Below are positions 22,595 through 37,897 of a stretch of 64,000 nucleotides of DNA, in pieces (within the stretch, counting starts at the first letter, position 1; each line of letters opens with the position of its first letter). Under the pieces are notes generated by a model, which had not been told where the DNA came from, ran no database searches, and saw nothing but the letters and a program-made list of their open reading frames with translations. Both the position numbers and the translations under genes were made by a program. The DNA is from Escherichia phage p000v, in sequence record NC_055781.1; one strand, written 5' to 3'.

Positions 22595-23143
22595 ATGGCT
22601 AAAATTATTTTAGTAGATGGCCCGGATAATGCCGGTAAAACAACTTTCATTAATGACATAATGGAAATTAGTGAAAGATATGTAAAGATTGATTTCCCTA
22701 AACGAACAGTTGATGGACGTTTCGATGTTAAGTCTCGAAATGAAGTTGGCTGTTTCGAAACGATGTTGAATTATTTAGACCCTACTAAGATTTATCTGTT
22801 AGACCGTGGATATATTAGTAACTGGGTTTATGGACGTATTCGACAAGATGCGGACTCGATTCTTGACGTTTATGAACAGGACTATGTTCGTCTTTGCCAA
22901 AACCATGATGTGTTCACAATTATTTTAACACGTAACGAAATGACTGAAAGTTTTGAAGACGACCTTATTACTTTGTCTTCATTCGGTTTTAATACAGTCA
23001 TTTCACATTTTGAAGAGTTTGCAATTCATAACAAAATCCAAACATATCAATTACTTAATCATGATGGTGCTAACAAAGTTATAGGATTTAATGCAAGCGA
23101 ACGTAATGGTTTGATTACAGAAATCATCAAATGGGCTCGTTAA
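22595..23143 (+). CDS. P-loop nucleotide/nucleoside kinase-like protein (thymidylate-kinase-like fold)
   Basis: 182 aa; Walker A VDGPDNAGKTT and DR motif LLDRGYISNWVYG. Confidence 0.55.
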   Translation: MAKIILVDGPDNAGKTTFINDIMEISERYVKIDFPKRTVDGRFDVKSRNEVGCFETMLNYLDPTKIYLLDRGYISNWVYGRIRQDADSILDVYEQDYVRLCQNHDVFTIILTRNEMTESFEDDLITLSSFGFNTVISHFEEFAIHNKIQTYQLLNHDGANKVIGFNASERNGLITEIIKWAR

Positions 23144-23164
23144 GAGCCTGTTTAAAGTTTTAAA

Positions 23165-23189
23165 TGCTGTATAACCCTTAGTATATAAT
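23165..23189 (+). promoter_or_regulatory. middle-promoter-like element upstream of uvsX
   Basis: TGCTGTA box (one mismatch), 12-nt spacer, TATAAT. Confidence 0.4.
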
Positions 23190-23242
23190 CGTTTTATCTT
23201 TTAAACATGAGTAAAATATAATGATGCCTATGGAAAAATACA

Positions 23243-24415
23243 ATGTCTGATTTAAAATCTCGTCTGATTAAAGCTTCTACTTCTAAAATGACTGCAGACT
23301 TGACTAAGTCTAAGCTGTTTAATAATCGTGATGAAGTCCCTACTCGTATTCCGATGTTGAATATTGCACTAGGTGGTGCTCTGAATGCAGGATTGCAATC
23401 AGGCTTGACTATTTTTGCTGCACCTTCTAAACACTTTAAAACGCTGTTTGGACTAACTATGGTTGCAGCGTATATGAAGAAATATAAAGATGCAATCTGT
23501 TTGTTCTATGACTCAGAATTTGGTGCTTCAGAATCTTATTTTCGTTCAATGGGTGTTGATTTAGACCGTGTAGTTCATACACCAATTCAGTCCGTCGAAC
23601 AACTTAAAGTTGATATGACTAATCAGCTTGACGCGATTGAACGCGGTGATAAAGTTATTATCTTTATCGATTCAATCGGTAATACTGCATCTAAGAAAGA
23701 AACCGAAGATGCATTGAATGAGAAAGTCGTAGGTGATATGTCTCGTGCTAAGGCACTTAAATCTCTGTTCCGTATTGTGACCCCGTATCTGACTATTAAA
23801 GATATTCCGTGTGTTGCAATCAACCATACAGCAATGGAAATCGGCGGACTATATCCTAAAGAGATTATGGGTGGTGGTACAGGTATTCTTTATTCTGCCA
23901 ACACGGTATTTTTTATCTCTAAACGTCAGGTTAAAGAAGGTACAGAATTGACCGGTTATGACTTCACGTTGAAAGCAGAAAAATCTCGTACAGTTAAAGA
24001 GAAATCTACTTTCCCGATCACGGTTAATTTCGATGGTGGTATCGACCCATTCAGTGGCTTGCTAGAAATGGCAACTGAAATCGGTTTTGTGGTTAAGCCT
24101 AAAGCTGGTTGGTATGCTCGTGAATTCCTTGACGAAGAAACAGGTGAAATGATTCGTGAAGAAAAATCATGGCGTGCTAAAGCTACTGATTGTGTAGAAT
24201 TCTGGGGACCTTTGTTTAAACACAAACCTTTCCGTGATGCGATTGAAATGAAATATAAGCTAGGCGCTATCTCGTCTATTAAAGAAGTTGATGACGCTGT
24301 TAACGACCTTATTAATTGCAAAGCAACAACTAAAGTTCCGGTTAAAGCTTCTGATGCTCCGTCTGCAGCAGATATAGAAAACGACCTTGACGAAATGGAA
24401 GATTTCGATGAATAA
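23243..24415 (+). CDS. uvsX: RecA-like recombinase UvsX
   Basis: 390 aa; N-terminus MSDLKSRLIKASTSK matches T4 UvsX as recalled; RecA-fold ATPase. Confidence 0.95.
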   Translation: MSDLKSRLIKASTSKMTADLTKSKLFNNRDEVPTRIPMLNIALGGALNAGLQSGLTIFAAPSKHFKTLFGLTMVAAYMKKYKDAICLFYDSEFGASESYFRSMGVDLDRVVHTPIQSVEQLKVDMTNQLDAIERGDKVIIFIDSIGNTASKKETEDALNEKVVGDMSRAKALKSLFRIVTPYLTIKDIPCVAINHTAMEIGGLYPKEIMGGGTGILYSANTVFFISKRQVKEGTELTGYDFTLKAEKSRTVKEKSTFPITVNFDGGIDPFSGLLEMATEIGFVVKPKAGWYAREFLDEETGEMIREEKSWRAKATDCVEFWGPLFKHKPFRDAIEMKYKLGAISSIKEVDDAVNDLINCKATTKVPVKASDAPSAADIENDLDEMEDFDE

Positions 24416-24749
24416 TCTCGATGATTTAAATCTAGAAATCGTTGATGAATCCCCTTCTTCGGAAGGGGAAGACATTCGCAAAGAACGAGTGTTTAATGAA
24501 TCTCTTAAAATTATCCGTTCAGCAATGGAAAATGTCATTCAAGAGATTCTGATTACACTTGAAGATGGTTCTCATCATATAGTCTATATTACAAAACTAG
24601 ACTGGGTTGATGGTAAAATCGTAATGGACTTTGCAGTTCTTGACCAGGACAGAAAAGCAGAACTTGCACCACATGTTGAAAAATGTGTTACAATGCAAGT
24701 ACAACAAGCTTTTAATGAACGAACCAAGAAAAAATTTAAATTCTTTTAA
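24408..24749 (+). CDS. 40: gp40-like protein (assigned by position)
   Basis: about 113 aa from ATG overlapping the uvsX 3' end; between uvsX and 41 as in T4. Confidence 0.5.
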   Translation: MNNLDDLNLEIVDESPSSEGEDIRKERVFNESLKIIRSAMENVIQEILITLEDGSHHIVYITKLDWVDGKIVMDFAVLDQDRKAELAPHVEKCVTMQVQQAFNERTKKKFKFF

Positions 24750-24758
24750 GGAGTTATC

Positions 24759-26201
24759 GTGGTAGAAATTATTTTGTCTCATCTAGTATACGACCAGGCT
24801 TATTTTTCTAAGGTCTGGCCTTATATGGATTCTGATTACTTTGAGCGTGGACCGGCAAAAAACGTCTTTAAAATTATAAAGAGCCACGTTAACGAATATA
24901 ATGCAATGCCATCTATCAATGCATTAAAGGTGGCTTTAGATAACAGTTCTTTAACTGAAGCTGAATATAAAGGAACTTCAGACCTAATTGAAAAATTGGC
25001 TGATACTCCTGAAGACCATGAATGGCTGGTTAAAGAAACTGAGAAATATGTCCAGCAAAAAGCGATGTATAATGCTACATCCAAAATCATTGAGATTCAG
25101 TCTAATGCTGAACTACCTCCAGAACAACGTAACAAGAAAATGCCTGACGTAGGAGCTATTCCTGATATTATGCGTCAAGCGCTTTCAATTTCGTTCGATA
25201 GTTATGTTGGACATGACTGGATGGAAGACTACGAAGCACGCTGGCTTTCTTATCTAAATAAAGCACGTAAGGTCCCGTTCAAATTAAACATTTTGAATAA
25301 AATCACCAAAGGTGGTGCCGAAACCGGTACACTAAACGTTTTAATGGCGGGTGTTAACGTTGGTAAATCTTTAGGCCTTTGTTCACTTGCTGCAGATTAT
25401 CTTCAAACAGGTCATAATGTTCTTTATATTTCCATGGAAATGGCTGAAGAAGTTTGTGCTAAGCGTATAGATGCAAACATGCTTGACGTATCACTTGATG
25501 ATATCGATGATGGTAACGTATCTTATGCTGAATATAAAGCCAAGATGGAAAAATGGCGTTCAAAAACAACATTAGGACGTTTAGTAGTTAAACAGTATCC
25601 TACCGGTGGAGCTAATGCTAATACATTCCGTGCATTGCTTAATGAGTTAAAACTCAAGAAGAACTTTGTGCCGTCTGTAATCATGGTTGATTACTTAGGT
25701 ATTTGTGGGTCTTGTCGTATCAGAGTTTACACTGAAAATAGCTACACATTAGTTAAAGCTATCGCAGAAGAACTTCGTGCATTAGCAGTAGAATCTGAAA
25801 CAGTTCTATGGACTGCTGCTCAGGTAGGACGTGCAGCATGGGATGCTTCAGACATGAACATGAGTGATATCGCAGAATCAGCAGGTTTACCAGCAACGGC
25901 AGATTTCATGTTGGCTGTAATTGAAACCGAAGAACTTGCACAAGCTGAACAACAACTTATCAAACAAATCAAATCACGATATGGTGATAAGAATAAGTGG
26001 AATAAATTCCTGATGGGTGTACGTAAAGGCAATCAGAAATGGGTTGAGATTGAGCAAGAAGGCATGAACACACCTAACACAGTAAATGAAAACGCAGGTG
26101 CTCAGATGCGTCAAGCAGAGGTGAATCGTACGGAACGCGTAGGTAAAGCCAAAGCAACACGTGCTGACCTAGATAGCTTAGCCAACGAGTTAAAATTTTA
26201 A
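24759..26201 (+). CDS. 41: replicative DNA helicase gp41 (DnaB-like)
   Basis: 480 aa; Walker A GVNVGKS; GTG start preceded by AAGGAG RBS. Confidence 0.95.
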   Translation: MVEIILSHLVYDQAYFSKVWPYMDSDYFERGPAKNVFKIIKSHVNEYNAMPSINALKVALDNSSLTEAEYKGTSDLIEKLADTPEDHEWLVKETEKYVQQKAMYNATSKIIEIQSNAELPPEQRNKKMPDVGAIPDIMRQALSISFDSYVGHDWMEDYEARWLSYLNKARKVPFKLNILNKITKGGAETGTLNVLMAGVNVGKSLGLCSLAADYLQTGHNVLYISMEMAEEVCAKRIDANMLDVSLDDIDDGNVSYAEYKAKMEKWRSKTTLGRLVVKQYPTGGANANTFRALLNELKLKKNFVPSVIMVDYLGICGSCRIRVYTENSYTLVKAIAEELRALAVESETVLWTAAQVGRAAWDASDMNMSDIAESAGLPATADFMLAVIETEELAQAEQQLIKQIKSRYGDKNKWNKFLMGVRKGNQKWVEIEQEGMNTPNTVNENAGAQMRQAEVNRTERVGKAKATRADLDSLANELKF

Positions 26202-26207
26202 TAAAAA

Positions 26208-26226
26208 GGAGACTTCGGTCTCCTTT
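26208..26226 (+). terminator. intrinsic terminator (GGAGAC-ttcg-GTCTCC then TTT)
   Basis: UUCG tetraloop hairpin right after the gene 41 stop. Confidence 0.55.
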
Positions 26227-26230
26227 CGGG

Positions 26231-26260
26231 GTTTACATCTTCCTCTAGGCATGATATGAT
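26231..26260 (+). promoter_or_regulatory. T4-type early promoter (GTTTAC -18- TATGAT)
   Basis: consensus-like -35 and -10 upstream of ORF 26290. Confidence 0.45.
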
Positions 26261-26289
26261 GTACTTACACTAACCAAGAGGAAAACATT

Positions 26290-26664
26290 ATGAATATGTC
26301 TCAAGCAATTTTTACTGCAATCACCGAAAACACAACTGTTGAAGTAGTTTCTCCGCTGGCAACCTACGTTATTCTTGCTCCTAAATCTATTGTATCTCGT
26401 ATGGAAAACATGGGCAAACGTATCGTACAAATCGTTGGAGCCGGAAATCAAAAACTTGATTATCTGCGAACCATCAAAGCTTATGAACATTTCCAACTCG
26501 AAAAAGGTTCTCCCATCCAGGTAGAACTCGTAAATGGTGATATCGTTCGAGCAATGTTCCATCATTTCTATGCATTGAATGACCCATCTAAAGCGGTTCG
26601 TTTAATTGCATACGACGCAAACCAAAACGAAATCAACGCAGATATATCTAAATTACGTTTTTAA
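26290..26664 (+). CDS. hypothetical protein
   Basis: 124-aa ORF. Confidence 0.4.
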   Translation: MNMSQAIFTAITENTTVEVVSPLATYVILAPKSIVSRMENMGKRIVQIVGAGNQKLDYLRTIKAYEHFQLEKGSPIQVELVNGDIVRAMFHHFYALNDPSKAVRLIAYDANQNEINADISKLRF

Positions 26665-26715
26665 GTTTACTTCTCCAGTAGTTATGTTATTATAGATCTA
26701 TCAACTACTGGAGAA
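26665..26715 (+). promoter_or_regulatory. early promoter (GTTTAC -17- TATTAT) embedded in a 13-bp perfect inverted repeat
   Basis: TTCTCCAGTAGTT (26671-26683) / AACTACTGGAGAA (26703-26715); -10 in the loop; the right arm contains the GGAGAA RBS of the next gene. Confidence 0.5.
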
Positions 26716-26719
26716 CAAA

Positions 26720-27037
26720 ATGAAAACCATCGATTGTAAAGCAGAATTTAAGATTTTTTATCACGGTTCAAGTAGTTCAGCTAACATCGAAAACATGCTT
26801 TGTCCTCCTGAAGAAACAGGAGTTCTGTCTGAAACCGGACGTAAGAAAAACTTGAATCGTGTATTCTTTACTGAAGATATCGGTTTAGCAAAGATTTACG
26901 CAGGACGAGCAGCACGCTCTTATGGAGGTGAACCACGTCTCTATCGAGTAATTTCTCCGGTAGATGTAGTTCAAATGAATGATACTAAAGGTGCTACAGT
27001 TTATCATGCTGAATGGGCATTTTGCGAGGAAATATGA
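26720..27037 (+). CDS. hypothetical protein
   Basis: 105-aa ORF with RBS; no recognisable family. Confidence 0.4.
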   Translation: MKTIDCKAEFKIFYHGSSSSANIENMLCPPEETGVLSETGRKKNLNRVFFTEDIGLAKIYAGRAARSYGGEPRLYRVISPVDVVQMNDTKGATVYHAEWAFCEEI

Positions 27038-27222
27038 GCAAATTAACTAAAATTACTTTTATTGGCTGGTTTAAAAGCGGTGAGATGTTCACTAAAGATA
27101 TCATGTTATCAGGTGATCGTGAAGAAATCGAGTGGGTTGCGGTGCAACTCGCCGAAGTGAACAATGCATTAGTTAAAGCATTTATTAATGACGAGAAAGT
27201 TTTTGAAGCTGATTTTCGATAA
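27034..27222 (+). CDS. dmd: Dmd-like small protein (possible antitoxin, discriminator of mRNA degradation)
   Basis: about 62 aa from ATG at 27034 (ATGA overlap); size and position between 41 and 61 match T4 dmd; assignment from recalled family features. Confidence 0.4.
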   Translation: MSKLTKITFIGWFKSGEMFTKDIMLSGDREEIEWVAVQLAEVNNALVKAFINDEKVFEADFR

Positions 27223-27235
27223 TTTTAAAATAACT

Positions 27236-27265
27236 GTTTACAAGCACCACATACTGTGTTACTAT
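27236..27265 (+). promoter_or_regulatory. T4-type early promoter (GTTTAC -18- TACTAT)
   Basis: upstream of lipoprotein ORF 27294. Confidence 0.45.
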
Positions 27266-27293
27266 CTTTTTATCAACTACAGAGGAAATTGAA

Positions 27294-27662
27294 ATGAAAA
27301 AATTAATCGCTTTAGCAATGGTATTTGGATTAACAGGATGTGGTGCTCATGGCTTTATCCCTAATAACGTTGGCCAATTGATTTATAACCCGAATGTTAA
27401 ACAGTACAACCAACCTAAAGTTGAAGTGGAAGACCCGGTTACTGTAGGTAATCGAATGATTCAAGCTGATGCCCATGCTCAACGTTATCGTGATTCTGAT
27501 ACTGTAGCATTGTCAAAAGAACAACGCGTTAAAGAACATTGCTTACAGGCTACTGAAATCGCATTCATTCGCTATGTTGAAACAACTGGCAAAGAGCCTT
27601 CCCAGAAACAAATCGCGAATAACTACGTCCAGTGTATTGAACGTTTAAACAAATTTAATTAA
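27294..27662 (+). CDS. putative lipoprotein
   Basis: 122 aa; signal peptide with lipobox MKKLIALAMVFGLTGC. Confidence 0.5.
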   Translation: MKKLIALAMVFGLTGCGAHGFIPNNVGQLIYNPNVKQYNQPKVEVEDPVTVGNRMIQADAHAQRYRDSDTVALSKEQRVKEHCLQATEIAFIRYVETTGKEPSQKQIANNYVQCIERLNKFN

Positions 27663-27665
27663 TTG

Positions 27666-27695
27666 GTTTACACCAAAGTTAAACCAAGATACTAT
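27666..27695 (+). promoter_or_regulatory. T4-type early promoter (GTTTAC -18- TACTAT)
   Basis: upstream of ORF 27724. Confidence 0.45.
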
Positions 27696-27723
27696 AAACA
27701 TAACAAATCAAGAGGAAATTAAC

Positions 27724-27972
27724 ATGGAATTATTCGTGGCTAGTTCAGTAGCAGTTTTAATCGCAGGTATTGGTTCAATCATCATTTACATGTTGCCTTG
27801 GGTAATCGCACTTATTCGTGGCACAAAAAGCACAACAGCAATCTTCTTTGTATCTTTACTCTTTAACTGGACGATGATTGGTTGGATTGGAACTTTAATT
27901 TGGTCTATCGTTGCCGAAAAGAAATCTGCTCAGCAGACTCAACAAGTAATTATTATTCGCGAAAAAGAATAA
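27724..27972 (+). CDS. small inner-membrane protein (two predicted TM helices)
   Basis: 82 aa, two hydrophobic segments. Confidence 0.45.
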   Translation: MELFVASSVAVLIAGIGSIIIYMLPWVIALIRGTKSTTAIFFVSLLFNWTMIGWIGTLIWSIVAEKKSAQQTQQVIIIREKE

Positions 27973-27976
27973 ACTT

Positions 27977-28011
27977 GTTTACATTATAGATGGACTATAG
28001 TATAGTAGTCC
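27977..28011 (+). promoter_or_regulatory. T4-type early promoter (GTTTAC -18- TATAGT) with inverted repeat GGACTA/TAGTCC around the -10
   Basis: upstream of ORF 28036. Confidence 0.45.
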
Positions 28012-28035
28012 TATCAAATCAACTAAGGAGTTAAA

Positions 28036-28329
28036 ATGAAAAAGTTATCATTGGCAGCAATCCTACTTGCAGTATCATGTGCACCGGCTCCAGTTACGGC
28101 AGGTTATGATAAAGACCTCTGTGAGTGGTCAATGACTGCAAATCAAGAAGATGTTGAACAACAAATCTTCTCTGATATCATGAACATCACTAAACGAGAC
28201 CGTCCTAATATGGTTAATAAAGTTGTTGAACAACTTAAGTCTGGCGGTATCATGCAGTACAACTATGTTTTGTATTGTGACCCTAATTTCGATAACAAAG
28301 ATATCGTAACCGAAATCACAGGTGAATAA
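28036..28329 (+). CDS. sp: secreted/periplasmic protein, Spackle (Sp)-like
   Basis: 97 aa with N-terminal signal peptide (MKKLSLAAILLAVSCAPAPVTAG); size and position between 41 and 61 match T4 sp. Confidence 0.45.
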   Translation: MKKLSLAAILLAVSCAPAPVTAGYDKDLCEWSMTANQEDVEQQIFSDIMNITKRDRPNMVNKVVEQLKSGGIMQYNYVLYCDPNFDNKDIVTEITGE

Positions 28330-28330
28330 T

Positions 28331-28981
28331 ATGATTTATTATATGCACAAAAACGCGCCATTTAAATATGGTAAATTTCCTAATGCACAATGTTATAATA
28401 TAACGCCGAATGAAAATAATAACGGATACCATATTGGTGTAATTTTTGTAATTGTTAAAGATAACGAAATCGTTGCCTGGGCAGATTTTAAAGGTACAAC
28501 ATATGATGTTAATCCTGTGCCTTTCACATATTACAATATAATGGATTTGGCATATGATTATAATTGGTTTACTCATGACACGTTGGCTCATATTGAAGGT
28601 GTAGGATTTGACATCTCTTATTCTAGCTATTCGTTACGTCCTATGAGCCGAGCTCACGGTAAAGATGTATCATATCTTTCAATTCGGAAACGTGTAAACT
28701 TCAAACGTAGTACAGAGTATGTTGGTGGACTCTTTGTTAAAGATAATAAAATAACCCGTATTAGTTATCCTTTAAGTGTAGATCAAAAAGATGTTGATGT
28801 TGATTTAGTCTTAACTGAAAGTAACATTAATCGTATTGCTTCTGTATATTTTGATATCAATGAAAAAATTGTAGTGTGTGGATACGAATTACCACTTGAA
28901 GAAAAGGCTGAAGCAATTGAAGTCGAATTAGAAATTTCTGTTGATGACCAAATATTTAATGCATTTATGAATCGAGGTTAA
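28331..28981 (+). CDS. hypothetical protein
   Basis: about 216 aa from the ATG right after the upstream stop. Confidence 0.4.
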   Translation: MIYYMHKNAPFKYGKFPNAQCYNITPNENNNGYHIGVIFVIVKDNEIVAWADFKGTTYDVNPVPFTYYNIMDLAYDYNWFTHDTLAHIEGVGFDISYSSYSLRPMSRAHGKDVSYLSIRKRVNFKRSTEYVGGLFVKDNKITRISYPLSVDQKDVDVDLVLTESNINRIASVYFDINEKIVVCGYELPLEEKAEAIEVELEISVDDQIFNAFMNRG

Positions 28982-28982
28982 A

Positions 28983-29180
28983 ATGACTACTGCAATTTGC
29001 ACTGGTTCTAAAATTAGTGTTTTTACAAGTTTTGAAGATTATGAAGTTGTTTCAAAACACCAATACAATATTAACGTAAAAGCTAATGATGGTGTAATTT
29101 GGAATATTCCACACTATGAAGACACTACATATGAAGTCACAGATGCGAACGGTGATAAAGCGATCTTTGTGATTGATTAA
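28983..29180 (+). CDS. hypothetical protein
   Basis: 65-aa ORF. Confidence 0.35.
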   Translation: MTTAICTGSKISVFTSFEDYEVVSKHQYNINVKANDGVIWNIPHYEDTTYEVTDANGDKAIFVID

Positions 29181-29199
29181 ATATACTCAGGAGGTACCT

Positions 29200-29667
29200 A
29201 TGGGTATTATTAACACTGCAATAGATTCTGTTTACGCATATAAGTTTATTCGACTAATGCAAAAACCTTTTACCGAATGGAAAGCGTACGAAGCCAAAAT
29301 AATCGACGAACGTGGAAGTGTTCTTAAACGTCCTTCTACTCCCGAAGAGAAAGCGGCTTATACACCTTTTCATGCTTCAGTTCGTTCAATGAAGCGAATG
29401 ATGAGTACTGTTCCAGGTCTTAATGGAATGGCCTCAATGATGTCTGCCTGGAGTGCTGTAGCTTCACGCTATAACATTACTGAAGAACAACAGAAAGAAA
29501 TATTTAAAGAACTCCCTTTATTTGAGGATATGGTTGCTGGTGATTCAGGTGGCAGTCCTCAAGCTATTGCATCAGGAACAACTACAGGTGCAGTCGTAAA
29601 TAAAGGTCCAGAACAAATTCCTTCCAAGAAAAGAAAGCGAATTAAAGTAAATATTAATAAGTTGTGA
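29200..29667 (+). CDS. hypothetical protein
   Basis: ATG at 29200 with CAGGAGGTACCT RBS; 155 aa. Confidence 0.45.
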   Translation: MGIINTAIDSVYAYKFIRLMQKPFTEWKAYEAKIIDERGSVLKRPSTPEEKAAYTPFHASVRSMKRMMSTVPGLNGMASMMSAWSAVASRYNITEEQQKEIFKELPLFEDMVAGDSGGSPQAIASGTTTGAVVNKGPEQIPSKKRKRIKVNINKL

Positions 29668-29706
29668 TAAGATGGCCTTATTAATTTAAGGCCTCTGGAG
29701 AATACT

Positions 29707-30729
29707 ATGGCTGAATGGATAGATAATGAATTTGCTTATCGTGCGTTTTCTCACCTACCTCGTTTTAGACAAATCAATAATTCAAGCACATTTAAATTAA
29801 CATTTCGATGCCCAGTTTGTGGCGACTCTCAGACAGATGCAATGAAAGCCCGCGGATGGTATTATGGCGGTACTCCAGGTAATGTGCATTGCTATAACTG
29901 CCAATATCATAATACAATTTCTGGATACTTAAAAGAGTACGATGAAGAGCTTTATCGCGAGTATCTAATGGAAGTTCGTAAAGAAAAAGCTAGAATGGAA
30001 CCAAAGATTGAAAAGGTTCCTGAACATAAACCGGAACCGGAGAAAAAGACTATAAATTCTTTGCCGTCTTGTTCTCGTCTGGACAAGTTGCCTGAAGAGC
30101 ATCCTATTGTGAAATATGTTAAGTCTCGGTGTATTCCTAAAGAATCATGGAACAGATTATGGTTCACATTAGAATGGCCCAAATTGGTCAACAAGATTCA
30201 ACCTGGTACGTATAAGAAAGAGATTCCCGAGCCACGTTTAGTGATTCCTATTTTTAATAAAGACGGGAAGGCCGAGTCATTCCAAGGACGTGCACTTCGT
30301 AAAGATGCTCCTCAAAAATATATCACTATTAAAGCTTTTGAATCCGCAACAAAAATTTATGGTGTTGAACGTGTTAAGGAAGGGGACGTCTGGGTAATGG
30401 AAGGCCCTATTGATAGTTTATTCATACCCAATGCAATAGCTATTACAGGCGGCTCAATAGATTTAGATGTGGTGCCATTTAAAGAACGTCGGGTATGGGT
30501 AATGGATAATGAACCTAGGCATCCGGATACTATAGCTCGTATGAAGCGATTAGTTGATGCAGGCGAACGTGTCATGTTCTGGGACCGAGCTCCATGGAGA
30601 TCAAAGGATGTGAATGATATGGTAATGAAAGAAAATGCAACACCACAAGAAATTTTAGAATATATGAAACAGAATATTTCAAGTGGGTTGCATGCTAAAA
30701 TGAGATTATCTCGTTATTCGAAGATTTAA
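29707..30729 (+). CDS. 61: DNA primase gp61
   Basis: 340 aa; N-terminal zinc ribbon CPVCGDS...CYNC; TOPRIM-like acidic motifs. Confidence 0.9.
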   Translation: MAEWIDNEFAYRAFSHLPRFRQINNSSTFKLTFRCPVCGDSQTDAMKARGWYYGGTPGNVHCYNCQYHNTISGYLKEYDEELYREYLMEVRKEKARMEPKIEKVPEHKPEPEKKTINSLPSCSRLDKLPEEHPIVKYVKSRCIPKESWNRLWFTLEWPKLVNKIQPGTYKKEIPEPRLVIPIFNKDGKAESFQGRALRKDAPQKYITIKAFESATKIYGVERVKEGDVWVMEGPIDSLFIPNAIAITGGSIDLDVVPFKERRVWVMDNEPRHPDTIARMKRLVDAGERVMFWDRAPWRSKDVNDMVMKENATPQEILEYMKQNISSGLHAKMRLSRYSKI

Positions 30730-30923
30730 ACAAGCCCTATAATAGCAAAGGCCAAATCAACTACAGTATCCAATGGAACAGAAGGAACTATAATACCATG
30801 GGCAACTAACAATGGTGCAATCCCGAAGTTCCATGAAATAATGCCACCTACAACTATTGCAGCGATAGCAGTTTTCTTTTTATTGCCTTTAATAGCGTTG
30901 ATTAACGATGGAAGTTTAAACAT
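30726..30923 (-). CDS. small membrane protein encoded antisense to the early genes
   Basis: 65 aa, strongly hydrophobic; AAGGAGATATT RBS before the ATG on the - strand; convergent with gene 61. Confidence 0.45.
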   Translation of the reverse strand: MFKLPSLINAIKGNKKKTAIAAIVVGGIISWNFGIAPLLVAHGIIVPSVPLDTVVDLAFAIIGLV

Positions 30924-31011
30924 AATATCTCCTTAGTTACCTATTATTTATTACGCTTTATAAAATTAATGTTAGAATTAACTCTCTTATACTGAATTGA
31001 AAGGAAAAATA

Positions 31012-31533
31012 ATGGCACACTTTAACGAATGTTCACAACTTATTTCTGGTGTTGATAAAGCAGAAGAAGCTTATTTTAATGCTCTGATTCACGAAGATAA
31101 AGACCCACTGCAGGTAATGCTTGATATGCAGAAATCTTTACAGGTTCGTCTGGCAAATGACAAGCCTGAACATAACAAACATCCTGATGAATTGGCCACT
31201 GCTGGTGATGTTGTTGATTGGCTGCGTAATCAGAAAGATTATATTGATGATGAATTTCGTGAACTGCTGACTTCACTTGGTGGTATGAGCAACGGTGAAA
31301 AAGCCGCCAGCAGTGTATGGAAGCCGTGGAAGGCACAACACGCTGAATATCGAAATCGTCGTATCGATGAACTGTCTCCTGAAGACCAGCTCGAAATTAA
31401 ATTCGAAATGATTGATATTCTGCACTTCGTTCTGAACATGTTCCAAGGTCTGGGTCTTTCCGCTGAAGAAATCTTTAAACTTTACTACTTGAAAAACCAA
31501 CACAACTTTGAACGTCAGGATAATGGTTACTGA
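31012..31533 (+). CDS. 56: dCTP pyrophosphatase gp56 (MazG-like)
   Basis: 173 aa from ATG at 31012; T4 gp56 size; MazG-like helical acidic motifs. Confidence 0.8.
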   Translation: MAHFNECSQLISGVDKAEEAYFNALIHEDKDPLQVMLDMQKSLQVRLANDKPEHNKHPDELATAGDVVDWLRNQKDYIDDEFRELLTSLGGMSNGEKAASSVWKPWKAQHAEYRNRRIDELSPEDQLEIKFEMIDILHFVLNMFQGLGLSAEEIFKLYYLKNQHNFERQDNGY

Positions 31534-31539
31534 TTAAGT

Positions 31540-31547
31540 TATAAATA
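31540..31547 (+). promoter_or_regulatory. late promoter TATAAATA upstream of soc
   Basis: exact T4 late-promoter octamer 32 nt before the soc ATG. Confidence 0.55.
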
Positions 31548-31578
31548 CACCTGTAATTAAACAACAAAGGAGTTAATT

Positions 31579-31815
31579 ATGGGTGGTTACGTTAATATCA
31601 AAACCTTTACTCATCCAGCGGGTGAAGGCAAAGAAGTTAAAGGTATGGAAGTTTCTGTTCCGTTTGAAATCTATTCTAACGAGCATCGTATTGCAGATTC
31701 TCATTACCAAATCTTTCCATCAGAAAAGGCAGCTTATTCTACTGTAGTTTCTGATGCAGCTGACTGGAAAACTAAGAACGCTGCAATGTTTACCCCTACA
31801 CCAGTAAGTGGTTAA
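31579..31815 (+). CDS. soc: small outer capsid protein Soc
   Basis: 78 aa; GYVNIKTF...FPSEKAAYSTV matches T4 Soc as recalled; late promoter upstream. Confidence 0.8.
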   Translation: MGGYVNIKTFTHPAGEGKEVKGMEVSVPFEIYSNEHRIADSHYQIFPSEKAAYSTVVSDAADWKTKNAAMFTPTPVSG

Positions 31816-31823
31816 ATAATTTA

Positions 31824-31849
31824 AGGAATCCTTCGGGATTCCTTTTTTC
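31824..31849 (+). terminator. intrinsic terminator (AGGAATCC-ttcg-GGATTCCT then TTTTT)
   Basis: 8-bp stem, UUCG loop, T-run after soc. Confidence 0.6.
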
Positions 31850-31858
31850 GTTTCTAGA

Positions 31859-31888
31859 GTTTACATCTACTAAAAACTGTGTTAAGAT
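31859..31888 (+). promoter_or_regulatory. T4-type early promoter (GTTTAC -18- TAAGAT)
   Basis: near-duplicate of the promoter at 3274. Confidence 0.45.
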
Positions 31889-31916
31889 ATTCTTACTTAC
31901 TCAAGAGGAGAACAAT

Positions 31917-32144
31917 ATGTTAAATCGTTGGATTAAACCTAATAACACATTAGGTGCTTTGATTGCTCAAGAAGTTTCGTTGAAATACGGTCTTGGATAT
32001 TACGATGATGTAGTCGTACACTCATTCATGATGGATGGTGAAGACGTCAAATTTAATGCCGAAATCCGTTGGGATGATGGTGGTGTTCGTTTTGTTCGAG
32101 GAACAATTAATGCTTACGATACTGAAGAAGTTATTTGCTGTTAA
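31917..32144 (+). CDS. hypothetical protein
   Basis: 75-aa ORF. Confidence 0.4.
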   Translation: MLNRWIKPNNTLGALIAQEVSLKYGLGYYDDVVVHSFMMDGEDVKFNAEIRWDDGGVRFVRGTINAYDTEEVICC

Positions 32145-32157
32145 ACCAGGCGAAGGT

Positions 32158-32346
32158 ATGATGCCTATTCCTGATACACACGAAAAAAGTTGGGAATACA
32201 TTGGTGACGGCATGATGGAAGAAGTTATTCGTCCTAAGTCTGCTTCAAACTCTTCAAGTTATAATCATTCATACGTATCGTCTTGGCCTGGTGATTCCGG
32301 GTCAAGTTATTCTGATTGTGGTTCAAGCTCAGGGAGCTGCGAATGA
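32158..32346 (+). CDS. hypothetical Ser-rich protein
   Basis: ATG ATG after GAAGG RBS; 62 aa, C-terminal Ser/Gly/Cys-rich tail. Confidence 0.3.
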   Translation: MMPIPDTHEKSWEYIGDGMMEEVIRPKSASNSSSYNHSYVSSWPGDSGSSYSDCGSSSGSCE

Positions 32347-32522
32347 ACAAGATAGTTAAATGGTTTAAAAGCTGGGACGATGGTGTCGGTCCAGAAGATT
32401 GGCTGGATGTTCTTGAAGAGAATATGGCTAAAGAATTCCAGAAACATGAAGAAAAGCTCGTCGAAGATGAAGGCGAACGTATTGTAAAACTTTATATGGG
32501 TGAACCATCGAGGAAATTATAA
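32343..32522 (+). CDS. hypothetical protein
   Basis: 59 aa from ATG overlapping upstream stop. Confidence 0.35.
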   Translation: MNKIVKWFKSWDDGVGPEDWLDVLEENMAKEFQKHEEKLVEDEGERIVKLYMGEPSRKL

Positions 32523-32986
32523 TGGATGCTATGTTATTTAAAATGTACTTGCTTGAAGCCAAGTCGTTTAAACATATACCAGTAGAAGATAAGACTCCAC
32601 TAGAAATAGCTATTCTCATTAACAAAAGTCTAAATAATCCGCAATATATCGTAGAAGAATTCTGCAAATTGCAGATTCCTAAAGGTTACAAAATTCGTGT
32701 AGAGCGAGTTGGAGCTATTACTCGTTCTAAAAATTCTCCGTTTAGTCTTGAAGAAGGCATAAAGGACTTAGGTTATGAATCTACGGAAAATGCCGTTTAT
32801 GTGAATCCTGAAAAGCGTTTAGACTTGTTTGAAAAGCGAGACCATAAGTATTTTGCCAAAAAATACTTTATTACATCATTAGCAGATTTAATCCATTTGC
32901 AACGAGCTATTTGGAAATTTTTTAAGACAAAAGGTGTAGCGCTAGAAACATTCTCCGAGCAGCCTAGTTTTTATTTAGGTGAATAA
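32522..32986 (+). CDS. hypothetical protein
   Basis: 154-aa ORF. Confidence 0.45.
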   Translation: MDAMLFKMYLLEAKSFKHIPVEDKTPLEIAILINKSLNNPQYIVEEFCKLQIPKGYKIRVERVGAITRSKNSPFSLEEGIKDLGYESTENAVYVNPEKRLDLFEKRDHKYFAKKYFITSLADLIHLQRAIWKFFKTKGVALETFSEQPSFYLGE

Positions 32987-33167
32987 TATGGACCTTATGA
33001 GTATGTTTGACGAGCCTGAAGTTGAGGCTCCTAAAGTGCATCGTAGTGAACTTGTTGATGAACTAGATAGTATTATACAACGACACGGCTTTAGTTTACC
33101 TGTTGAAGCCCTGAAAGACCTTGCCTCTTATTATGACGACCCTCCACCATGGAGTCCTTGGAAATGA
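32979..33167 (+). CDS. hypothetical acidic protein
   Basis: 62-aa ORF; the start could instead be the ATG at 32988. Confidence 0.35.
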   Translation: MNNMDLMSMFDEPEVEAPKVHRSELVDELDSIIQRHGFSLPVEALKDLASYYDDPPPWSPWK

Positions 33168-33326
33168 AAGAGAAATTTAAAGAGAAATTCTTACTAGAAA
33201 TCAAGGAAAAAGACTTTGAGACATGGTATCGAATGGTGAAAGGGTTGACATTGCTTTTTAAAGCATCCTTATTCATGTTAGAACAACCTGGTCCTGATGG
33301 ACCTTTAGTAGGAAAGCTTAAAAAGT

Positions 33327-33356
33327 AGTTTACATTCCCTCCTCTCGTGTTATGAT
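33327..33356 (+). promoter_or_regulatory. T4-type early promoter (GTTTAC -18- TATGAT)
   Basis: followed by an 18-codon micro-ORF, then a second promoter-like element before the modA-like gene. Confidence 0.4.
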
Positions 33357-33514
33357 AGGCTTATCTTTAAATGGAGGTCTATCATGACATGTCAATCTGA
33401 ACTTCAAGAACGCGAATACCTAACAAAATCATTCATTTGAAAATGTTGAATTTTTAGTGTACAAACTCTACTGACGATGATACTATACTTTTATCAACCA
33501 CAGGAGAAACCTAA

Positions 33515-34123
33515 ATGTTTATGCCGTATAATGAATGTGAAATTGAAGAAATGGTTCGTCGTGCTCAAAACCCCGAATATCAAGATGTATTGCAGTACGA
33601 AATTGATAGTCAATTCAGCGACATTGAACAAAGTGTACTGTGGCAGTGTATGGAAAACAAGCCTGATAGCATCCAACAGGAGTTAAGTTCAATCGTTCGT
33701 AGAAATTGGACGTCTTCTGTTCCTGAGACAATGTATCGTGGAATCTCTAAGAAAACTATGGCCACACTCGATGATAAAGGCGTTGGTAGTATTATTAAAT
33801 TTGACAGAGTAATGAGCTTTAGCCCGGTGTTTGGTGTAGCACGTAACTTTGCTTCGTATAATTTTTACGGAACATTTAATATGTTCTGCATCAAAGATGC
33901 ACCATTTGCTTTCAACTTCCGTGAACATATGCTTAACATGATTCTGGCTGCGCCATCTTGTGAGTTCAATGGAGCTTTCCCTGAAGCGACAAGACGGTCT
34001 AATGCTAGACTTATATCTGACGAATGTGAATTTATGCTCCCTATAGGGACTACACTGCGTGTAGATTCTATTATTCAAGATGGAAGTTATACAATCTGGA
34101 ATCTGTCTATTGTCGGTTACTGA
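33515..34123 (+). CDS. modA: ADP-ribosyltransferase, ModA/ModB-like
   Basis: 202 aa; R-S-E pattern (YRGIS, FSPVFG, ECEFMLP); T4 mod position relative to dda. Confidence 0.55.
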   Translation: MFMPYNECEIEEMVRRAQNPEYQDVLQYEIDSQFSDIEQSVLWQCMENKPDSIQQELSSIVRRNWTSSVPETMYRGISKKTMATLDDKGVGSIIKFDRVMSFSPVFGVARNFASYNFYGTFNMFCIKDAPFAFNFREHMLNMILAAPSCEFNGAFPEATRRSNARLISDECEFMLPIGTTLRVDSIIQDGSYTIWNLSIVGY

Positions 34124-34197
34124 CTGGATTGGAATAACCGGATGGAACTCAGAACCATTATAACACATAAAAAATTAAAGCATTTTATGAAAAAAGA

Positions 34198-34226
34198 GTG
34201 TACACTACCTGAGGGCATGATATTAT
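34198..34226 (+). promoter_or_regulatory. early promoter (GTGTAC -17- TATTAT)
   Basis: upstream of ORF 34277. Confidence 0.4.
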
Positions 34227-34276
34227 AGACCTATCAGCTAAATGACCTTAACGTCCGTAAGACAGAGGAAAATATT

Positions 34277-35023
34277 ATGTTATCAAATAATAAAATTAAC
34301 AAAATCAATCGTCGTCTTGACCACACCAGAGCTTCTGCGAAGAGACGCTCTAAGGATTTTAACTTAGACTTTAATTACCTTAAAAACATTCTTGATCAAA
34401 AGGTCTGCGCTTACTCAGGTGAATCTTTCAATAACGCTGTTGAAGGTGAGAAATTATCCTTAGAACGTTTTAATAACGATATCGGCTACATTAAAGGTAA
34501 TGTTATCCCAGTTAAGAAAAAATATAACACGGCTCGTTCTGATTTAACATTAGAAGAACTTATTGAGAAACGTGATGCCATTGCAAGACGTATCGCTAAT
34601 CCTTCTGTCCGTAAAGTAGAGAAACTTAATCTCGACGAGAAGAAATGGGCCCAAATCAAAAAGGTTTATGATACCATTTTAAAAATCCGAGCAAAACGTG
34701 AAAATCGTGTTAAGCATATGGCGAACATGATGAAAAATCAACCTTTATCTAACGAATCTAAACTTAGAATTGTTGCTTTGAAAGCACGCATTAACGGCTC
34801 ACATCAAGCGGAAGGACATGAACTTACTAAACTCAACGTTCTTCTTAAAGGCTCTGACTGGAAAACTAAAACTAAATTAACTGACGCTGAATCGCTTTTC
34901 GATACATATGATAAAGTTATCCAAGGTCTGCAACGTTTTGAAAAGATTGGTTTCATTGGTAAATTAAAATTGAAACGTGGCCTACCACTTAGCGCATCAT
35001 TATTCCAACTGATTAAAGGTTAA
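34277..35023 (+). CDS. srd: Srd-like basic protein (assigned by position)
   Basis: 248 aa, Lys/Arg-rich; between the mod-like gene and dda as in T4. Confidence 0.35.
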   Translation: MLSNNKINKINRRLDHTRASAKRRSKDFNLDFNYLKNILDQKVCAYSGESFNNAVEGEKLSLERFNNDIGYIKGNVIPVKKKYNTARSDLTLEELIEKRDAIARRIANPSVRKVEKLNLDEKKWAQIKKVYDTILKIRAKRENRVKHMANMMKNQPLSNESKLRIVALKARINGSHQAEGHELTKLNVLLKGSDWKTKTKLTDAESLFDTYDKVIQGLQRFEKIGFIGKLKLKRGLPLSASLFQLIKG

Positions 35024-35025
35024 TT

Positions 35026-35337
35026 ATGGTTTATGTATATGCAATAGTTTATCGAGATATGGAAGGATTTACTGTCCCGGTTCCACTTGATGAGCATCGT
35101 CCTGCAGTATTTTTTAGAAAGGATATTGCAGATAAAGTTTTCGATACTTTGAAAACACAGTATAAAACAGATTTAAAAATGGGAGTTCTAAGAATGGTCG
35201 AAACTCCGCGTAAGTTCTGGTTTAATAAGCTTGAAATGAAACACATTAAACTAGATGCGGAGACGCAAAGATTGTATCAACGAATTCTAGATACTGGCCG
35301 TATTGTTAGTATTCCAATTGCAGGGACTTTACGATGA
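35026..35337 (+). CDS. hypothetical protein
   Basis: 103-aa ORF directly upstream of dda. Confidence 0.4.
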   Translation: MVYVYAIVYRDMEGFTVPVPLDEHRPAVFFRKDIADKVFDTLKTQYKTDLKMGVLRMVETPRKFWFNKLEMKHIKLDAETQRLYQRILDTGRIVSIPIAGTLR

Positions 35338-36647
35338 CATTTGATGATTTGACTGAAGGCCAGAAAAACGCCTTCAACGTTGTTATGAAAGCTATTAAAG
35401 AAAAGAAACATCACGTAACTATTAATGGGCCTGCTGGTACAGGTAAAACAACCCTTACTAGATTCATCGTTGAAGCCCTTATTTCTTCTGGAGAATCAGG
35501 TATTATTTTAGCAGCCCCTACACATGCTGCTAAAAAGGTTCTAAGCAAACTTGCAGGTCAAGAAGCATCGACTATTCATAGCATTCTTAAAATCAACCCA
35601 ACTACATACGAAGAAAACGTATTGTTTGAACAGAAAAAGGTTCCCGACTTAGCCTTGTGTCGTGTACTGTTATTTGATGAAGCATCAATGTGCGACCGTT
35701 CTCTGTTTAAAATAATGTTAGCTAGTATCCCTAAATGGTGTACAGTAATTGGAATCGGCGACAGATGCCAGATTCGTCCAGTGGACCCCGGCGAATCAAC
35801 TGCGTATCTAAGTCCTTTCTTCACTCACAAAGACTTCGTGCAATGCAACCTTACAGAAGTTAAACGTAGCAATGCACCAATTATTGATGTTGCGACTGAT
35901 ATTCGTAATGGCAAATGGATTTACGATAAAGTAGTTGATGGACACGGTGTTCATGGATATACAGACCTTAAATCGTATATGATGAACTATTTTAATGTCG
36001 TTAAAACTCCTGAAGACCTTTTCGAAAATCGAATGATGGCATTCACAAATAAGTCGGTTGACAAGTTGAATTCAATTATTCGCCGAAAACTTCTTGAAAC
36101 AGAAAAGCCATTTATTAAAGACGAAGTCATTGTTCTACAAGAGCCGTTTACCAAGACGTATAAGCTAGATGGCAAAAATATGACTGAAATGCTTTTCAAT
36201 AACGGGCAATTCGTTCGTATTCGAGATGCCGTAGAAACGTCTACATTCGTTAAAGCACGCGGTGTTTCAGGCGAATATATGATACGATACTGGAATCTTA
36301 CAGTAGAAACATATGGGGATGATGAAGAATACGTCCGCGAGGATATAAAGGTTATTTCTTCCGAAGAAGAGCTTTATAAATTCAATTTGTTTTTGGCTAA
36401 GACCGCAGAAACATACAAATTCTGGAATAAAGGTGGTAAAGCTCCATGGAGTGAATTCTGGGATGCTAAACGTATGTTCACTAAGGTGAAGGCACTACCA
36501 GTATCAACCTTCCATAAGGCCCAGGGTATGTCTGTTGACACGGCCTTTGTTTATACACCGTGTATCCATTATGCTGATTCAGAATTAGCTAAACAGTTAT
36601 TGTATGTCGGCACAACTCGTGGTCGTTTTGACGTCCATTTTATTTGA
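35334..36647 (+). CDS. dda: DNA helicase Dda (SF1)
   Basis: 437 aa; Walker A GPAGTGKTT, Walker B LFDEASM. Confidence 0.9.
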   Translation: MTFDDLTEGQKNAFNVVMKAIKEKKHHVTINGPAGTGKTTLTRFIVEALISSGESGIILAAPTHAAKKVLSKLAGQEASTIHSILKINPTTYEENVLFEQKKVPDLALCRVLLFDEASMCDRSLFKIMLASIPKWCTVIGIGDRCQIRPVDPGESTAYLSPFFTHKDFVQCNLTEVKRSNAPIIDVATDIRNGKWIYDKVVDGHGVHGYTDLKSYMMNYFNVVKTPEDLFENRMMAFTNKSVDKLNSIIRRKLLETEKPFIKDEVIVLQEPFTKTYKLDGKNMTEMLFNNGQFVRIRDAVETSTFVKARGVSGEYMIRYWNLTVETYGDDEEYVREDIKVISSEEELYKFNLFLAKTAETYKFWNKGGKAPWSEFWDAKRMFTKVKALPVSTFHKAQGMSVDTAFVYTPCIHYADSELAKQLLYVGTTRGRFDVHFI

Positions 36648-36656
36648 GAGAAAATT

Positions 36657-37334
36657 ATGAGCACTGATGTTATTATAGATTTTGAAACATTCGGCAATAC
36701 GTCAAAAGCTGCTGTTATTGACCTTGCGGTTATTGCATATAATTCAGACCCTGAAGTTGTTGAAACATTTGAAGAACTTGTTCAACGAGGTAAGCGAATT
36801 AAATTTAATTTAGCTTCTCAAAAAGGGAAGCGAGTTTTCGCTAAATCCACTATGAAATGGTGGAAAGAACAATCGGCTGAAGCACGTAAAAACCTGGCTC
36901 CGTCTGAAGACGATGTCACTACGCTTGAAGGCATTAAAATCTTTTTAGATTATTGTCGAGCTAATAAAGTTGACCAATGGAAATCACAGATGTGGTGCCG
37001 TGGTATGAGCTTTGACTTCCCGATCTTGGTCGATTTGATTCGTGACCTCTATCGTGATGAAGGTGTTCTTGAACCAGATATTGATACCGATAAATTAGAA
37101 CCTGTTAAATTCTGGGCTCAACGCGATATTCGTACGGCAATCGAAGCTTACTCGTTGACACGAGGATTAAGTATGTGTCCATTACCGATGGGTACGCTAA
37201 AAGGATTCGTTGCCCATGATAGTATTCATGATTGTGCTAAAGATATTTTGATGTTAAAATATGCTCAGCGTTATGCGCTTGGCCTTGAAGATGTCCCTGA
37301 GAATCCTGACCCGTTAAGTGTAAAACAGCGATAA
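36657..37334 (+). CDS. dexA: exonuclease A (DEDD family)
   Basis: 225 aa; N-terminal IIDFETFG; adjacent to dda as in T4. Confidence 0.8.
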   Translation: MSTDVIIDFETFGNTSKAAVIDLAVIAYNSDPEVVETFEELVQRGKRIKFNLASQKGKRVFAKSTMKWWKEQSAEARKNLAPSEDDVTTLEGIKIFLDYCRANKVDQWKSQMWCRGMSFDFPILVDLIRDLYRDEGVLEPDIDTDKLEPVKFWAQRDIRTAIEAYSLTRGLSMCPLPMGTLKGFVAHDSIHDCAKDILMLKYAQRYALGLEDVPENPDPLSVKQR

Positions 37335-37339
37335 AACCA

Positions 37340-37369
37340 GTTTACAACCAAGGATGGTTGGAGTATAAT
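37340..37369 (+). promoter_or_regulatory. early promoter (GTTTAC -18- TATAAT), duplicated at 37898
   Basis: GTTTACAACCAAGGATGGTTGGAGTATAAT. Confidence 0.5.
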
Positions 37370-37400
37370 CTTTCTATCTTAACCAAACAGGAAAAACATT

Positions 37401-37895
37401 ATGAATATCAATACTATGGCTACTTACATCCTGAAAGACGAAAAACAAATCAACTGGTACGGTGCTTCAGTGCGAGCTTATGAAAAGTTTTGTGAAATTT
37501 TAGGTGCCACTCAAGGTAATAGTTTCACTATTGTTAACTTCATCAAACAAGTTGAAGGCCCTTGGTTATTCTTAGAAATTAAAAATTCATATGGTACAAT
37601 TTCTACTACCGCCCTTCCAAGCACCGACTTTGAACTGTTGATTGAAGAAGCACCTGTTAAAGATGGTCTCCACTTTGATATGGATATCGCTTGTATGTAC
37701 GGTACTCTGATTAAGCCTATTGAGCCTACTGATTTGTTGTGTAAATATGTTTCAATTCGACGCCCATTCGTTGGTCCAGTAAATGGATGGGTAACTGACC
37801 AATGGATTGAAGACGGTGTTGAACTTCTGAACGTTGTTCATGCAGGTGATTTTAGTGTAGTTCCACGTAGTGCTGTGGTTAATATCCTTAATTAA
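37401..37895 (+). CDS. paralog family member A (hypothetical)
   Basis: 164 aa; C-terminal GWVTDQWIEDGVELLNVVHAGDFSVV shared with the two following genes. Confidence 0.5.
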   Translation: MNINTMATYILKDEKQINWYGASVRAYEKFCEILGATQGNSFTIVNFIKQVEGPWLFLEIKNSYGTISTTALPSTDFELLIEEAPVKDGLHFDMDIACMYGTLIKPIEPTDLLCKYVSIRRPFVGPVNGWVTDQWIEDGVELLNVVHAGDFSVVPRSAVVNILN

Positions 37896-37897
37896 TG

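Follow-up and report, generated by a model that had tools for sequence, protein, structure and literature searches.

The minus strand of Escherichia phage p000v (NC_055781.1) carries a 65-amino-acid (aa) open reading frame (ORF) between the genes for DNA primase (61) and dCTPase (56), at 30726..30923 of the 64,000-nucleotide (nt) stretch analysed here, hereafter the window. Judged from sequence, this ORF is almost certainly a real gene; on the same grounds it is a vertically inherited accessory gene of Tevenvirinae, and its product is very likely a membrane protein. The explanation that fits best overall, and which we favour with some reserve, is that of an accessory late gene for a membrane microprotein that modulates envelope events. 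The gene is already known: it has long been annotated in phage RB69, and hundreds of genomes now list it. Of note are its omission from the T4 reference records, the conserved late-type box found with it inside the early gene block, and its tandem paralogues and prophage relatives. The ORF and the signals that belong to it are as follows.

30726..30923, minus strand: coding sequence of the 65-aa putative membrane microprotein, with an ATG start; protein MFKLPSLINAIKGNKKKTAIAAIVVGGIISWNFGIAPLLVAHGIIVPSVPLDTVVDLAFAIIGLV; PHROG 2024
30929..30934, minus strand: Shine-Dalgarno sequence AAGGAG, 5 nt ahead of the ATG (30921..30923)
30945..30952, minus strand: late-promoter-like box AATAAATA, which agrees with the T4 gp55 consensus TATAAATA at 7 of its 8 positions
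30726..30729, shared by both strands: 4-nt tail-to-tail overlap of the ORF and gene 61, the two stop codons being interlocked in TTTAAA

Coding status and conservation

The preliminary description of this DNA had noted a 65-aa membrane-type ORF on the minus strand that has a strong ribosome-binding site and converges on gene 61. Its coordinates proved exact, and AAGGAG stands 5 nt ahead of the ATG; no alternative start exists, the stop-to-stop frame reaching just 3 codons upstream of the ATG. Length by itself is no proof of a gene here, because the A+T-rich early block (1..54784) holds 101 minus-strand ORFs of at least 50 aa. Of these 101, 30726..30923 alone escapes cover by plus-strand ORFs: its overlap is 2%, against 41% for the runner-up. 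This bears out the earlier remark that opposite-strand genes are rare in this early region.

Conservation, taken together with the pattern of substitution, indicates that the ORF is more than a product of chance. The window protein matches PHROG 2024 over its full length (E = 1.9e-27; residues 1-65 aligned to positions 1-65 of a 65-position profile). A homologue search in T4-like genomes, which had been proposed as a check, recovered 691 phage records by tblastn with the window protein, 684 of which cover at least 80% of it, and found the gene at a conserved position in six genera of Tevenvirinae. Identities fall into three main bands: at least 95% in Mosigvirus, 51-56% in Tequatrovirus (including T4 and T2) and 45-49% in Gaprivervirus.

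Nei-Gojobori distances, computed on 17 extracted coding sequences, give ratios of nonsynonymous to synonymous substitution (dN/dS) of 0.05-0.16 within Mosigvirus and within Tequatrovirus, where synonymous change suffices for the estimate, and of about 0.35 within Gaprivervirus. Between genera, the proportion of synonymous differences is saturated at 0.55-0.87, against 0.16-0.39 for nonsynonymous differences. Variable alignment columns are distributed over codon positions 1, 2 and 3 as 48, 27 and 63. Orthologue length is kept at 62-69 aa across the family and at 61-69 aa in the wider-family genomes examined, indels in otherwise intact copies are all in frame (one 62-aa and one 63-aa variant), and AAGGAG(G) or GGAGG stands at the equivalent place in every lineage examined. 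Two records contain a frameshift: T4_ev240 (L031, ~1110-1150), in which one A has been lost from an A-run, and ERS-1 (L006, ~2640-2650), which is marked 'unverified'. These frameshifts may be sequencing errors, or they may reflect dispensability of the gene.

Wider family, synteny and tandem copies

Convergence on gene 61 is constant in Mosigvirus, Tequatrovirus, Gaprivervirus, Gelderlandvirus, Jiaodavirus and Kanagawavirus. We confirmed the convergent position in RB69, T4, S16 (Gelderlandvirus), KPN6 (Jiaodavirus), Entb_45 and KLB31 (both Kanagawavirus) and several metagenomic contigs, and the 4-nt overlap with gene 61 is also annotated in RB69, T4, S16, Entb_45, KLB31 and Bas37. The gene on the other side of the ORF is variable, being 56, dam or a MazG-like gene. 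Length, strand, gene-61-convergent position and sequence motif are common to the orthologues RB69ORF029w, S16 gp16.1 (YP_007501066) and bas37_0144, among which we see no material difference. In RB49 (Krischvirus, outside Tevenvirinae), just 14 nt separate genes 56 and 61, and the ORF is absent.

When 1.84 billion representative proteins were searched with a profile, further sequences of 60-68 aa joined the family at E values of 1e-4 to 1e-10; run exhaustively, the search returned 9 proteins at E up to 0.001, all of them small and of phage type. When three of the added sequences were used as tblastn queries they matched 164, 116 and 183 phage records, and the phages so matched infect Klebsiella, Salmonella, Citrobacter, Enterobacter, Edwardsiella and other hosts. 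Across an alignment of 17 sequences that extends down to 23% identity, W31, P37 and G43 are invariant, N32 and P47 are present in at least 90%, position 52 is acidic in 16 of the 17 members, and a basic cluster lies ahead of the hydrophobic stretch. The family motif, W-N-[FY]...P...G...P..[DE], is present in the window protein.

Some relatives carry the family twice. The metagenomic phage L021 has a second, 67-aa member directly upstream in the same operon (2805-3008), and the gapriverviruses TH41, VR25 and VR26 have a second copy directly downstream. In CJ20 and VR20 a stop at codon 2 has turned the downstream copy into a pseudogene, in which CJ20 also has a deletion. These tandem type-B paralogues (L021; L004, ~2708-2908; equivalents in L005 and L020) follow the pattern MGT.FYQIWKL...LWNL.VVP.AATQ. 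The window itself contains no second copy of the ORF family.

Predicted topology and structure

That the product is a small hydrophobic protein of membrane type, as first described, agrees with two predictions. TMHMM places a transmembrane (TM) helix at residues 21-41 of RB69ORF029w, for which SignalP 3.0 is negative (PMC1524935 supplement), and AlphaFold2, supplied with the family alignment, models helices at residues 3-11, 15-41 and 51-62 with a loop at 42-50 (mean predicted local distance difference test score 81.6). The window protein has five Lys and no acidic residue before T18, and its C-terminus, IIVPSVPLDTVVDLAFAIIGLV, is hydrophobic, the Lys cluster being N-terminal. In the T4 protein the net charge is +5 before the hydrophobic core and -2 after it.

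By the positive-inside rule, this charge asymmetry would leave the N-terminus in the cytoplasm and the tail of ~22 residues in the periplasm or in the outer leaflet, and the model is consistent with a single-pass protein, N-terminus inside, whose TM segment spans approximately residues 18-41. The positions of the invariant or nearly invariant residues W31, N32, P37, G43, P47 and D/E52, all within the loop or the helix's outer half, predict a conserved surface that faces the periplasm, and the working surface is probably the periplasmic face of the inner membrane.

Late-promoter-like box and expression

On the minus strand, AATAAATA lies 21 nt ahead of the ATG. The comparison covered 11 lineages with upstream flanks too diverged to align. 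In 9 of them ATAAATA precedes the first ATG of the gene or operon by 19-29 nt; 20,000 shuffles never gave the heptamer to more than 4 lineages. The base that precedes it is A in Mosigvirus, L025 and L014, G in T4, C in Gaprivervirus, L021, KPN6 and KLB31, and T in Entb_45, whose box is a perfect TATAAATA. The T4 late consensus, TATAAATA, lies at -13 to -6; in T4-like phages its -13 position is reported to be weakly conserved, either A or T and often A in place of T (PMC1524935).

N-ATAAATA is strongly depleted in the window, with 8 copies against ~28 expected from shuffles (3 against 7.4 for TATAAATA; 5 against 20.8 for VATAAATA), and all 8 copies are oriented in the direction of the late genes. 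The three perfect TATAAATA boxes precede soc, t and gene 36. Such avoidance suggests selection against stray late promoters. The conservation of the box in 9 of 11 lineages, together with these window statistics, points to a gp55-type late promoter, which would start transcription near 30939 and leave a leader of ~16 nt. The gene is therefore likely, by our reading of its flanks, to be expressed late. Late expression had been put forward in the preliminary description, and it is plausible in view of the conserved box and of the strand, which the ORF shares with the late genes t, 38, 37, 36, 35 and 34 (minus strand, 54785-63868); the promoter's function, for its part, is deduced from sequence. 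Scanned for sigma-70 promoters and terminators, the surroundings of the ORF showed no signal that exceeded shuffled sequence.

The soc gene (PHROG 1715; 31579-31815, plus strand) is located on the early strand, with a perfect TATAAATA at 31540-31547, 31 nt before its ATG. At 54748-54755 on the minus strand, just downstream of the holin gene t, GATAAATA lies antisense to a 90-aa plus-strand ORF (54512-54784) that we take to be asiA from the T4 gene order. A 73-aa minus-strand ORF, 54391-54612, follows GATAAATA; it is 79% overlapped and has no PHROG match. This ORF and the one at 51732-51965, likewise on the minus strand, mostly overlapped and without a PHROG match, were considered as genes and treated as spurious.

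Relatives in prophages

One end of Leclercia and Enterobacter-type prophages encodes distant homologues of 80-86 aa (P0096-P0106). Compared with the T-even family they reach an hhalign probability of 94.7% (E = 6e-8), and they match PHROG 2024 at E values of 1e-6 to 1e-8. What they have in common with the T-even proteins is a homologous TM helix and a periplasmic motif, YNFIIIPVLALFGVILPPVPLxE against the T-even WNF..aP.a.ahG...PvV.ld, the prophage motif being closest to WNFIIIPVAASNGLVLPPVTIEH of the Kanagawavirus members. They differ in having a longer, unrelated N-terminus, in residing in temperate siphovirus-type prophages, and in that their genes are co-transcribed after, and overlap the end of, a truncated SegE-like GIY-YIG gene. 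A tblastn search with a prophage homologue found no match in the phage collection, and a prophage-type profile found none among the bacterial genome representatives.

The prophage homologue genes adjoin a T4-type lysozyme gene on the opposite strand, and this neighbourhood hints, weakly, at a link with murein or lysis. An island at 7041-9202 of L034 and L035, between tail and host genes, consists of the lysozyme gene (minus strand), the GIY-YIG fragment, the 86-aa homologue and a GTPase-like gene. It may be a moron, a defence island or a lysis remnant.

Proposed role and alternative explanations

In the account that we favour, gp55-RNA polymerase would transcribe the gene late from a sub-consensus N-ATAAATA promoter, the box lying ~6 nt upstream of a short leader that bears the strong Shine-Dalgarno sequence. 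The ~65-aa product would hold its Lys-rich amphipathic N-terminus in the cytoplasm, cross the membrane with one TM helix and end in a short, hydrophobic, acidic tail, and it would work, in the manner of small regulatory membrane proteins, by binding a larger protein of the envelope. Without being essential, it would modulate what happens in the envelope late in infection, for instance lysis timing, lysis inhibition or the handling of murein and lysozyme. For the binding of a larger membrane protein as its mode of action we draw on proteins of the AcrZ, MgrB and MgtR types, which are single-pass, 30-70 aa long, nearly all membrane-embedded and bound to a larger membrane protein; the likeness is one of analogy, without homology. 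The data show that the ORF is coding, that sequence, motif and gene position are conserved, and that the Bas37 orthologue is dispensable; late timing, topology, partner binding and a lysis-related role are what we infer for this microprotein.

These parts do not stand equally firm. A role in lysis or the envelope, taken as a claim of its own, is possible rather than probable, and the tandem paralogues in two lineages are a further hint of it. A broader proposal appears slightly less likely again, namely that the ORF founds a family of late inner-membrane microproteins present throughout Tevenvirinae, in part with tandem A/B paralogues, and with prophage relatives linked to lysozyme. Such a family would be a part so far missing from T-even envelope control, and it would either regulate holin T, the spanins or lysozyme at the periplasmic face or give rise to a processed periplasmic peptide.

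Superinfection exclusion and lysis timing had been named at the outset as candidate functions, and neither is upheld by the searches, which gave no sequence or fold link to the Imm, Sp, RI or holin families. Scans of the window, T4 and Gaprivervirus proteins with Pfam, NCBIfam and PADLOC gave nothing usable, a sequence-profile search of the PDB gave E values of 0.1 or more, and Foldseek found no match in the PDB and family members only in BFVD. A transposon-insertion study (preprint) of T4 and of its near relative Bas37 places bas37_0144 at 91945..92145 (plus strand, 201 nt) with a 4-nt overlap with the primase gene bas37_0145, and reports 20 of its 24 TA sites as disrupted and the gene as 'Non-essential' (10.1101/2025.11.20.689424). 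We equate bas37_0144 with the ORF by position and length. By this orthologue the gene is dispensable in the laboratory, and mutants should therefore be easy to make.

Several observations weigh against the account of a late envelope modulator. To our knowledge, the classical screens for T4 r mutants yielded only rI, rII, rIII and t, which speaks against a strong lysis-inhibition phenotype. The box stops at 7 of 8 positions in most lineages, with T as its first base in Entb_45 only, and it is missing altogether in two of the 11 (S16 and L023). The link with lysis is weakened by the setting of the prophage lysozyme gene, which lies on the opposite strand and shares a moron-like region with a GIY-YIG fragment and a GTPase. 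Nolan et al. (2006) list no late promoter at this spot in RB69 (PMC1524935), and the transposon study gives no significant change for bas37_0144 in two host comparisons (10.1101/2025.11.20.689424).

Of the alternatives, the one that survives best, unlikely as we hold it to be, is a late membrane factor for superinfection exclusion or defence, which would block DNA entry or signalling by a secondary phage or counter membrane-acting abortive infection. The site predicted for the product, the periplasmic side of the inner membrane, is also where Imm and Sp of T4 exert their effect. The neighbourhood is rich in exclusion and anti-defence genes (sp, an AdfA-like 61.2 and dmd), the prophage homologues are found in a moron-type region beside a GTPase-like gene, and the gene resembles imm and sp in being non-essential in the laboratory. 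RI, Imm and Sp are likewise small, non-essential and located at the inner membrane or in the periplasm, but none has sequence or profile similarity to the ORF product, and neither Pfam, PHROG nor any PADLOC model relates it to Imm or Sp. Imm and Sp are products of early genes on the other strand, as T4 exclusion genes are early, whereas this gene opposes early transcription and bears a late-type box; the periplasmic domain of RI is globular and of ~70 aa, against a tail of ~22 residues here. The low dN/dS is unlike that of an arms race. In the Bas37 data, moreover, insertions in bas37_0144 were not significantly depleted in two host comparisons (10.1101/2025.11.20.689424).

We give only a small chance to a pre-peptide, in which the basic N-terminus and the hydrophobic stretch would serve as a signal peptide and signal peptidase I would cleave at a conserved small-x-Gly site (A41-H42-G43) and free a 22-residue, hydrophobic, acidic periplasmic peptide. 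G43 is invariant, and 16 of 17 sequences have A, S or T at position 41; the invariant P37 is reminiscent of the helix breakers often seen near cleavage sites, and Ala, Gly, Ser and Thr abound in the hydrophobic stretch. However, a hydrophobic region of ~23 residues is long for a cleavable signal peptide, AlphaFold2 models residues 15-41 as one continuous helix, and one family member has Phe at -3. For RB69ORF029w, SignalP is negative where TMHMM calls a TM helix (PMC1524935).

A second holin, or a pore former of the pinholin type, is if anything a shade less probable. The product shares with T4 T and phage 21 S68 its small size and its membrane embedding and, if late as we suppose, its timing. 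One orthologue (vB_EcoM_OE5505) bears the UniProt name 'Holin', a Jiaodavirus-type protein and two prophage homologues weakly match PHROG holins (E 0.15-0.44), and the prophage homologues adjoin a lysozyme gene. But that name is a single label among hundreds of records called 'hypothetical', and the window protein has no Pfam or NCBIfam match and no PHROG holin match up to E = 1. It lacks a charged hydrophilic C-terminal domain, its charges being N-terminal. The window, moreover, already encodes a canonical T holin (54785-55444; PHROG 860, E = 1e-102), and the gene is not in the lysis cassette; it sits between primase and dCTPase.

A function at the level of RNA, in which a late antisense transcript would shut down primase (gene 61) and the ORF would be incidental, is very unlikely. 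No terminator follows the ORF in the window (Mosigvirus) or in T4, and there a late transcript would enter gene 61 in antisense. In L021, L023 and KPN6, by contrast, where the ORF and gene 61 are separated, a G+C-rich hairpin and a T-rich stretch lie between them and would block read-through, so that antisense entry into gene 61 is not a conserved feature; purifying selection on the amino acids and the strong Shine-Dalgarno sequence kept in every lineage also speak for the protein. Weakest of all, and scarcely credible, is a chance ORF without a product: an A+T-rich genome with 101 minus-strand ORFs in its early block could readily supply one, but this frame has a dN/dS well below 1, stays intact over six genera at 23-55% identity, keeps its ribosome-binding site and fills the sole gap between plus-strand ORFs.

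Locus and neighbouring genes

A megablast search with 29700-31600 matched 153 phage records at a query coverage of at least 80%, with a top identity of ~98%; the annotated relatives examined belong to Mosigvirus, the genus of RB69. The location between primase and dCTPase given in the preliminary description is secured by PHROG matches on either side.

29707..30729, plus strand: gene 61, DNA primase, on the early/middle strand (PHROG 47, E = 1.1e-101; annotation of close relatives)
31012..31533, plus strand: gene 56, dCTPase (PHROG 173, E = 1.6e-45; Pfam dUTPase_2)
30951..30978, plus strand: predicted MotA-type middle promoter of gene 56 (ttaCGCTTTA at 30951-30960, a 12-nt spacer, TAGAAT at 30973-30978)

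The predicted middle promoter of gene 56 and the late-type box of the ORF stand back to back on opposite strands of one 88-base-pair (bp) spacer, and the promoter site coincides with a middle promoter predicted in RB69, Pm:16038 (15998..16038, score 21.6; PMC1524935). The plus strand is the early/middle strand, with the gene order sp, 61.2, two small ORFs, 61, the gap, 56 and soc. Spackle (sp) is a separate gene at 28036-28329, ~2.4 kb from the ORF in the same gene block.

Between 61 and 56, the window (30730-31011) lacks dam, unlike T4 (NC_000866, 16785-17935) and Bas37; dam is likewise missing in some T4-like contigs (L014, T4_ev240). Farther away, at 16593-23143 on the plus strand, several ORFs between gene 43 and uvsX are not found in T4. 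They match the positions of RB69-specific ORFs, namely a thymidylate-synthase-like ORF, a peptidase U32, a nucleotidyl transferase and a SIS domain protein (Nolan et al., PMC1524935).

Annotation history and the omission from T4

The RB69 orthologue, RB69ORF029w (NP_861719), is annotated as 'hypothetical' and differs from the window protein by one residue; PHROG 2024 is labelled 'unknown function' in PHROGs, and most modern T-even records call the gene 'hypothetical protein'. The T4 references NC_000866.4 and AF158101.6 have no feature in the 310 bp between dam (end 17625) and gene 61 (start 17935), and an intact 66-aa homologue is present at 17738-17938 on the plus strand of NC_000866. A Pyrodigal-based annotation of a T4 mutant does include the ORF, and the T4 annotation on which the transposon study relies is without it (10.1101/2025.11.20.689424). 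The suggestion of an overlooked small protein thus holds for the T4 records NC_000866 and AF158101 and fails elsewhere, the gene being annotated as RB69ORF029w and in hundreds of genomes. Our literature searches found no paper naming RB69ORF029w and no T4 ribosome-profiling or proteogenomic study reporting the ORF, and general searches found no characterised small membrane protein adjoining primase.

T4 is the reference phage of its family, yet a conserved gene under purifying selection has been left out of its reference records. Adding the gene would correct the T4 annotation, and omics studies and knock-down screens based on NC_000866 skip it. It is one of very few genes to oppose the early block with a late-type promoter-like box. 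If the proposal of a Tevenvirinae-wide envelope-control family is true, the lack of any annotation in the T4 reference genome would explain how the family eluded sixty years of T4 genetics. Should the gene have no strong phenotype, it would be an ordinary accessory ORF; a modulating effect on lysis, murein handling or exclusion would make it a new player in a classic system.

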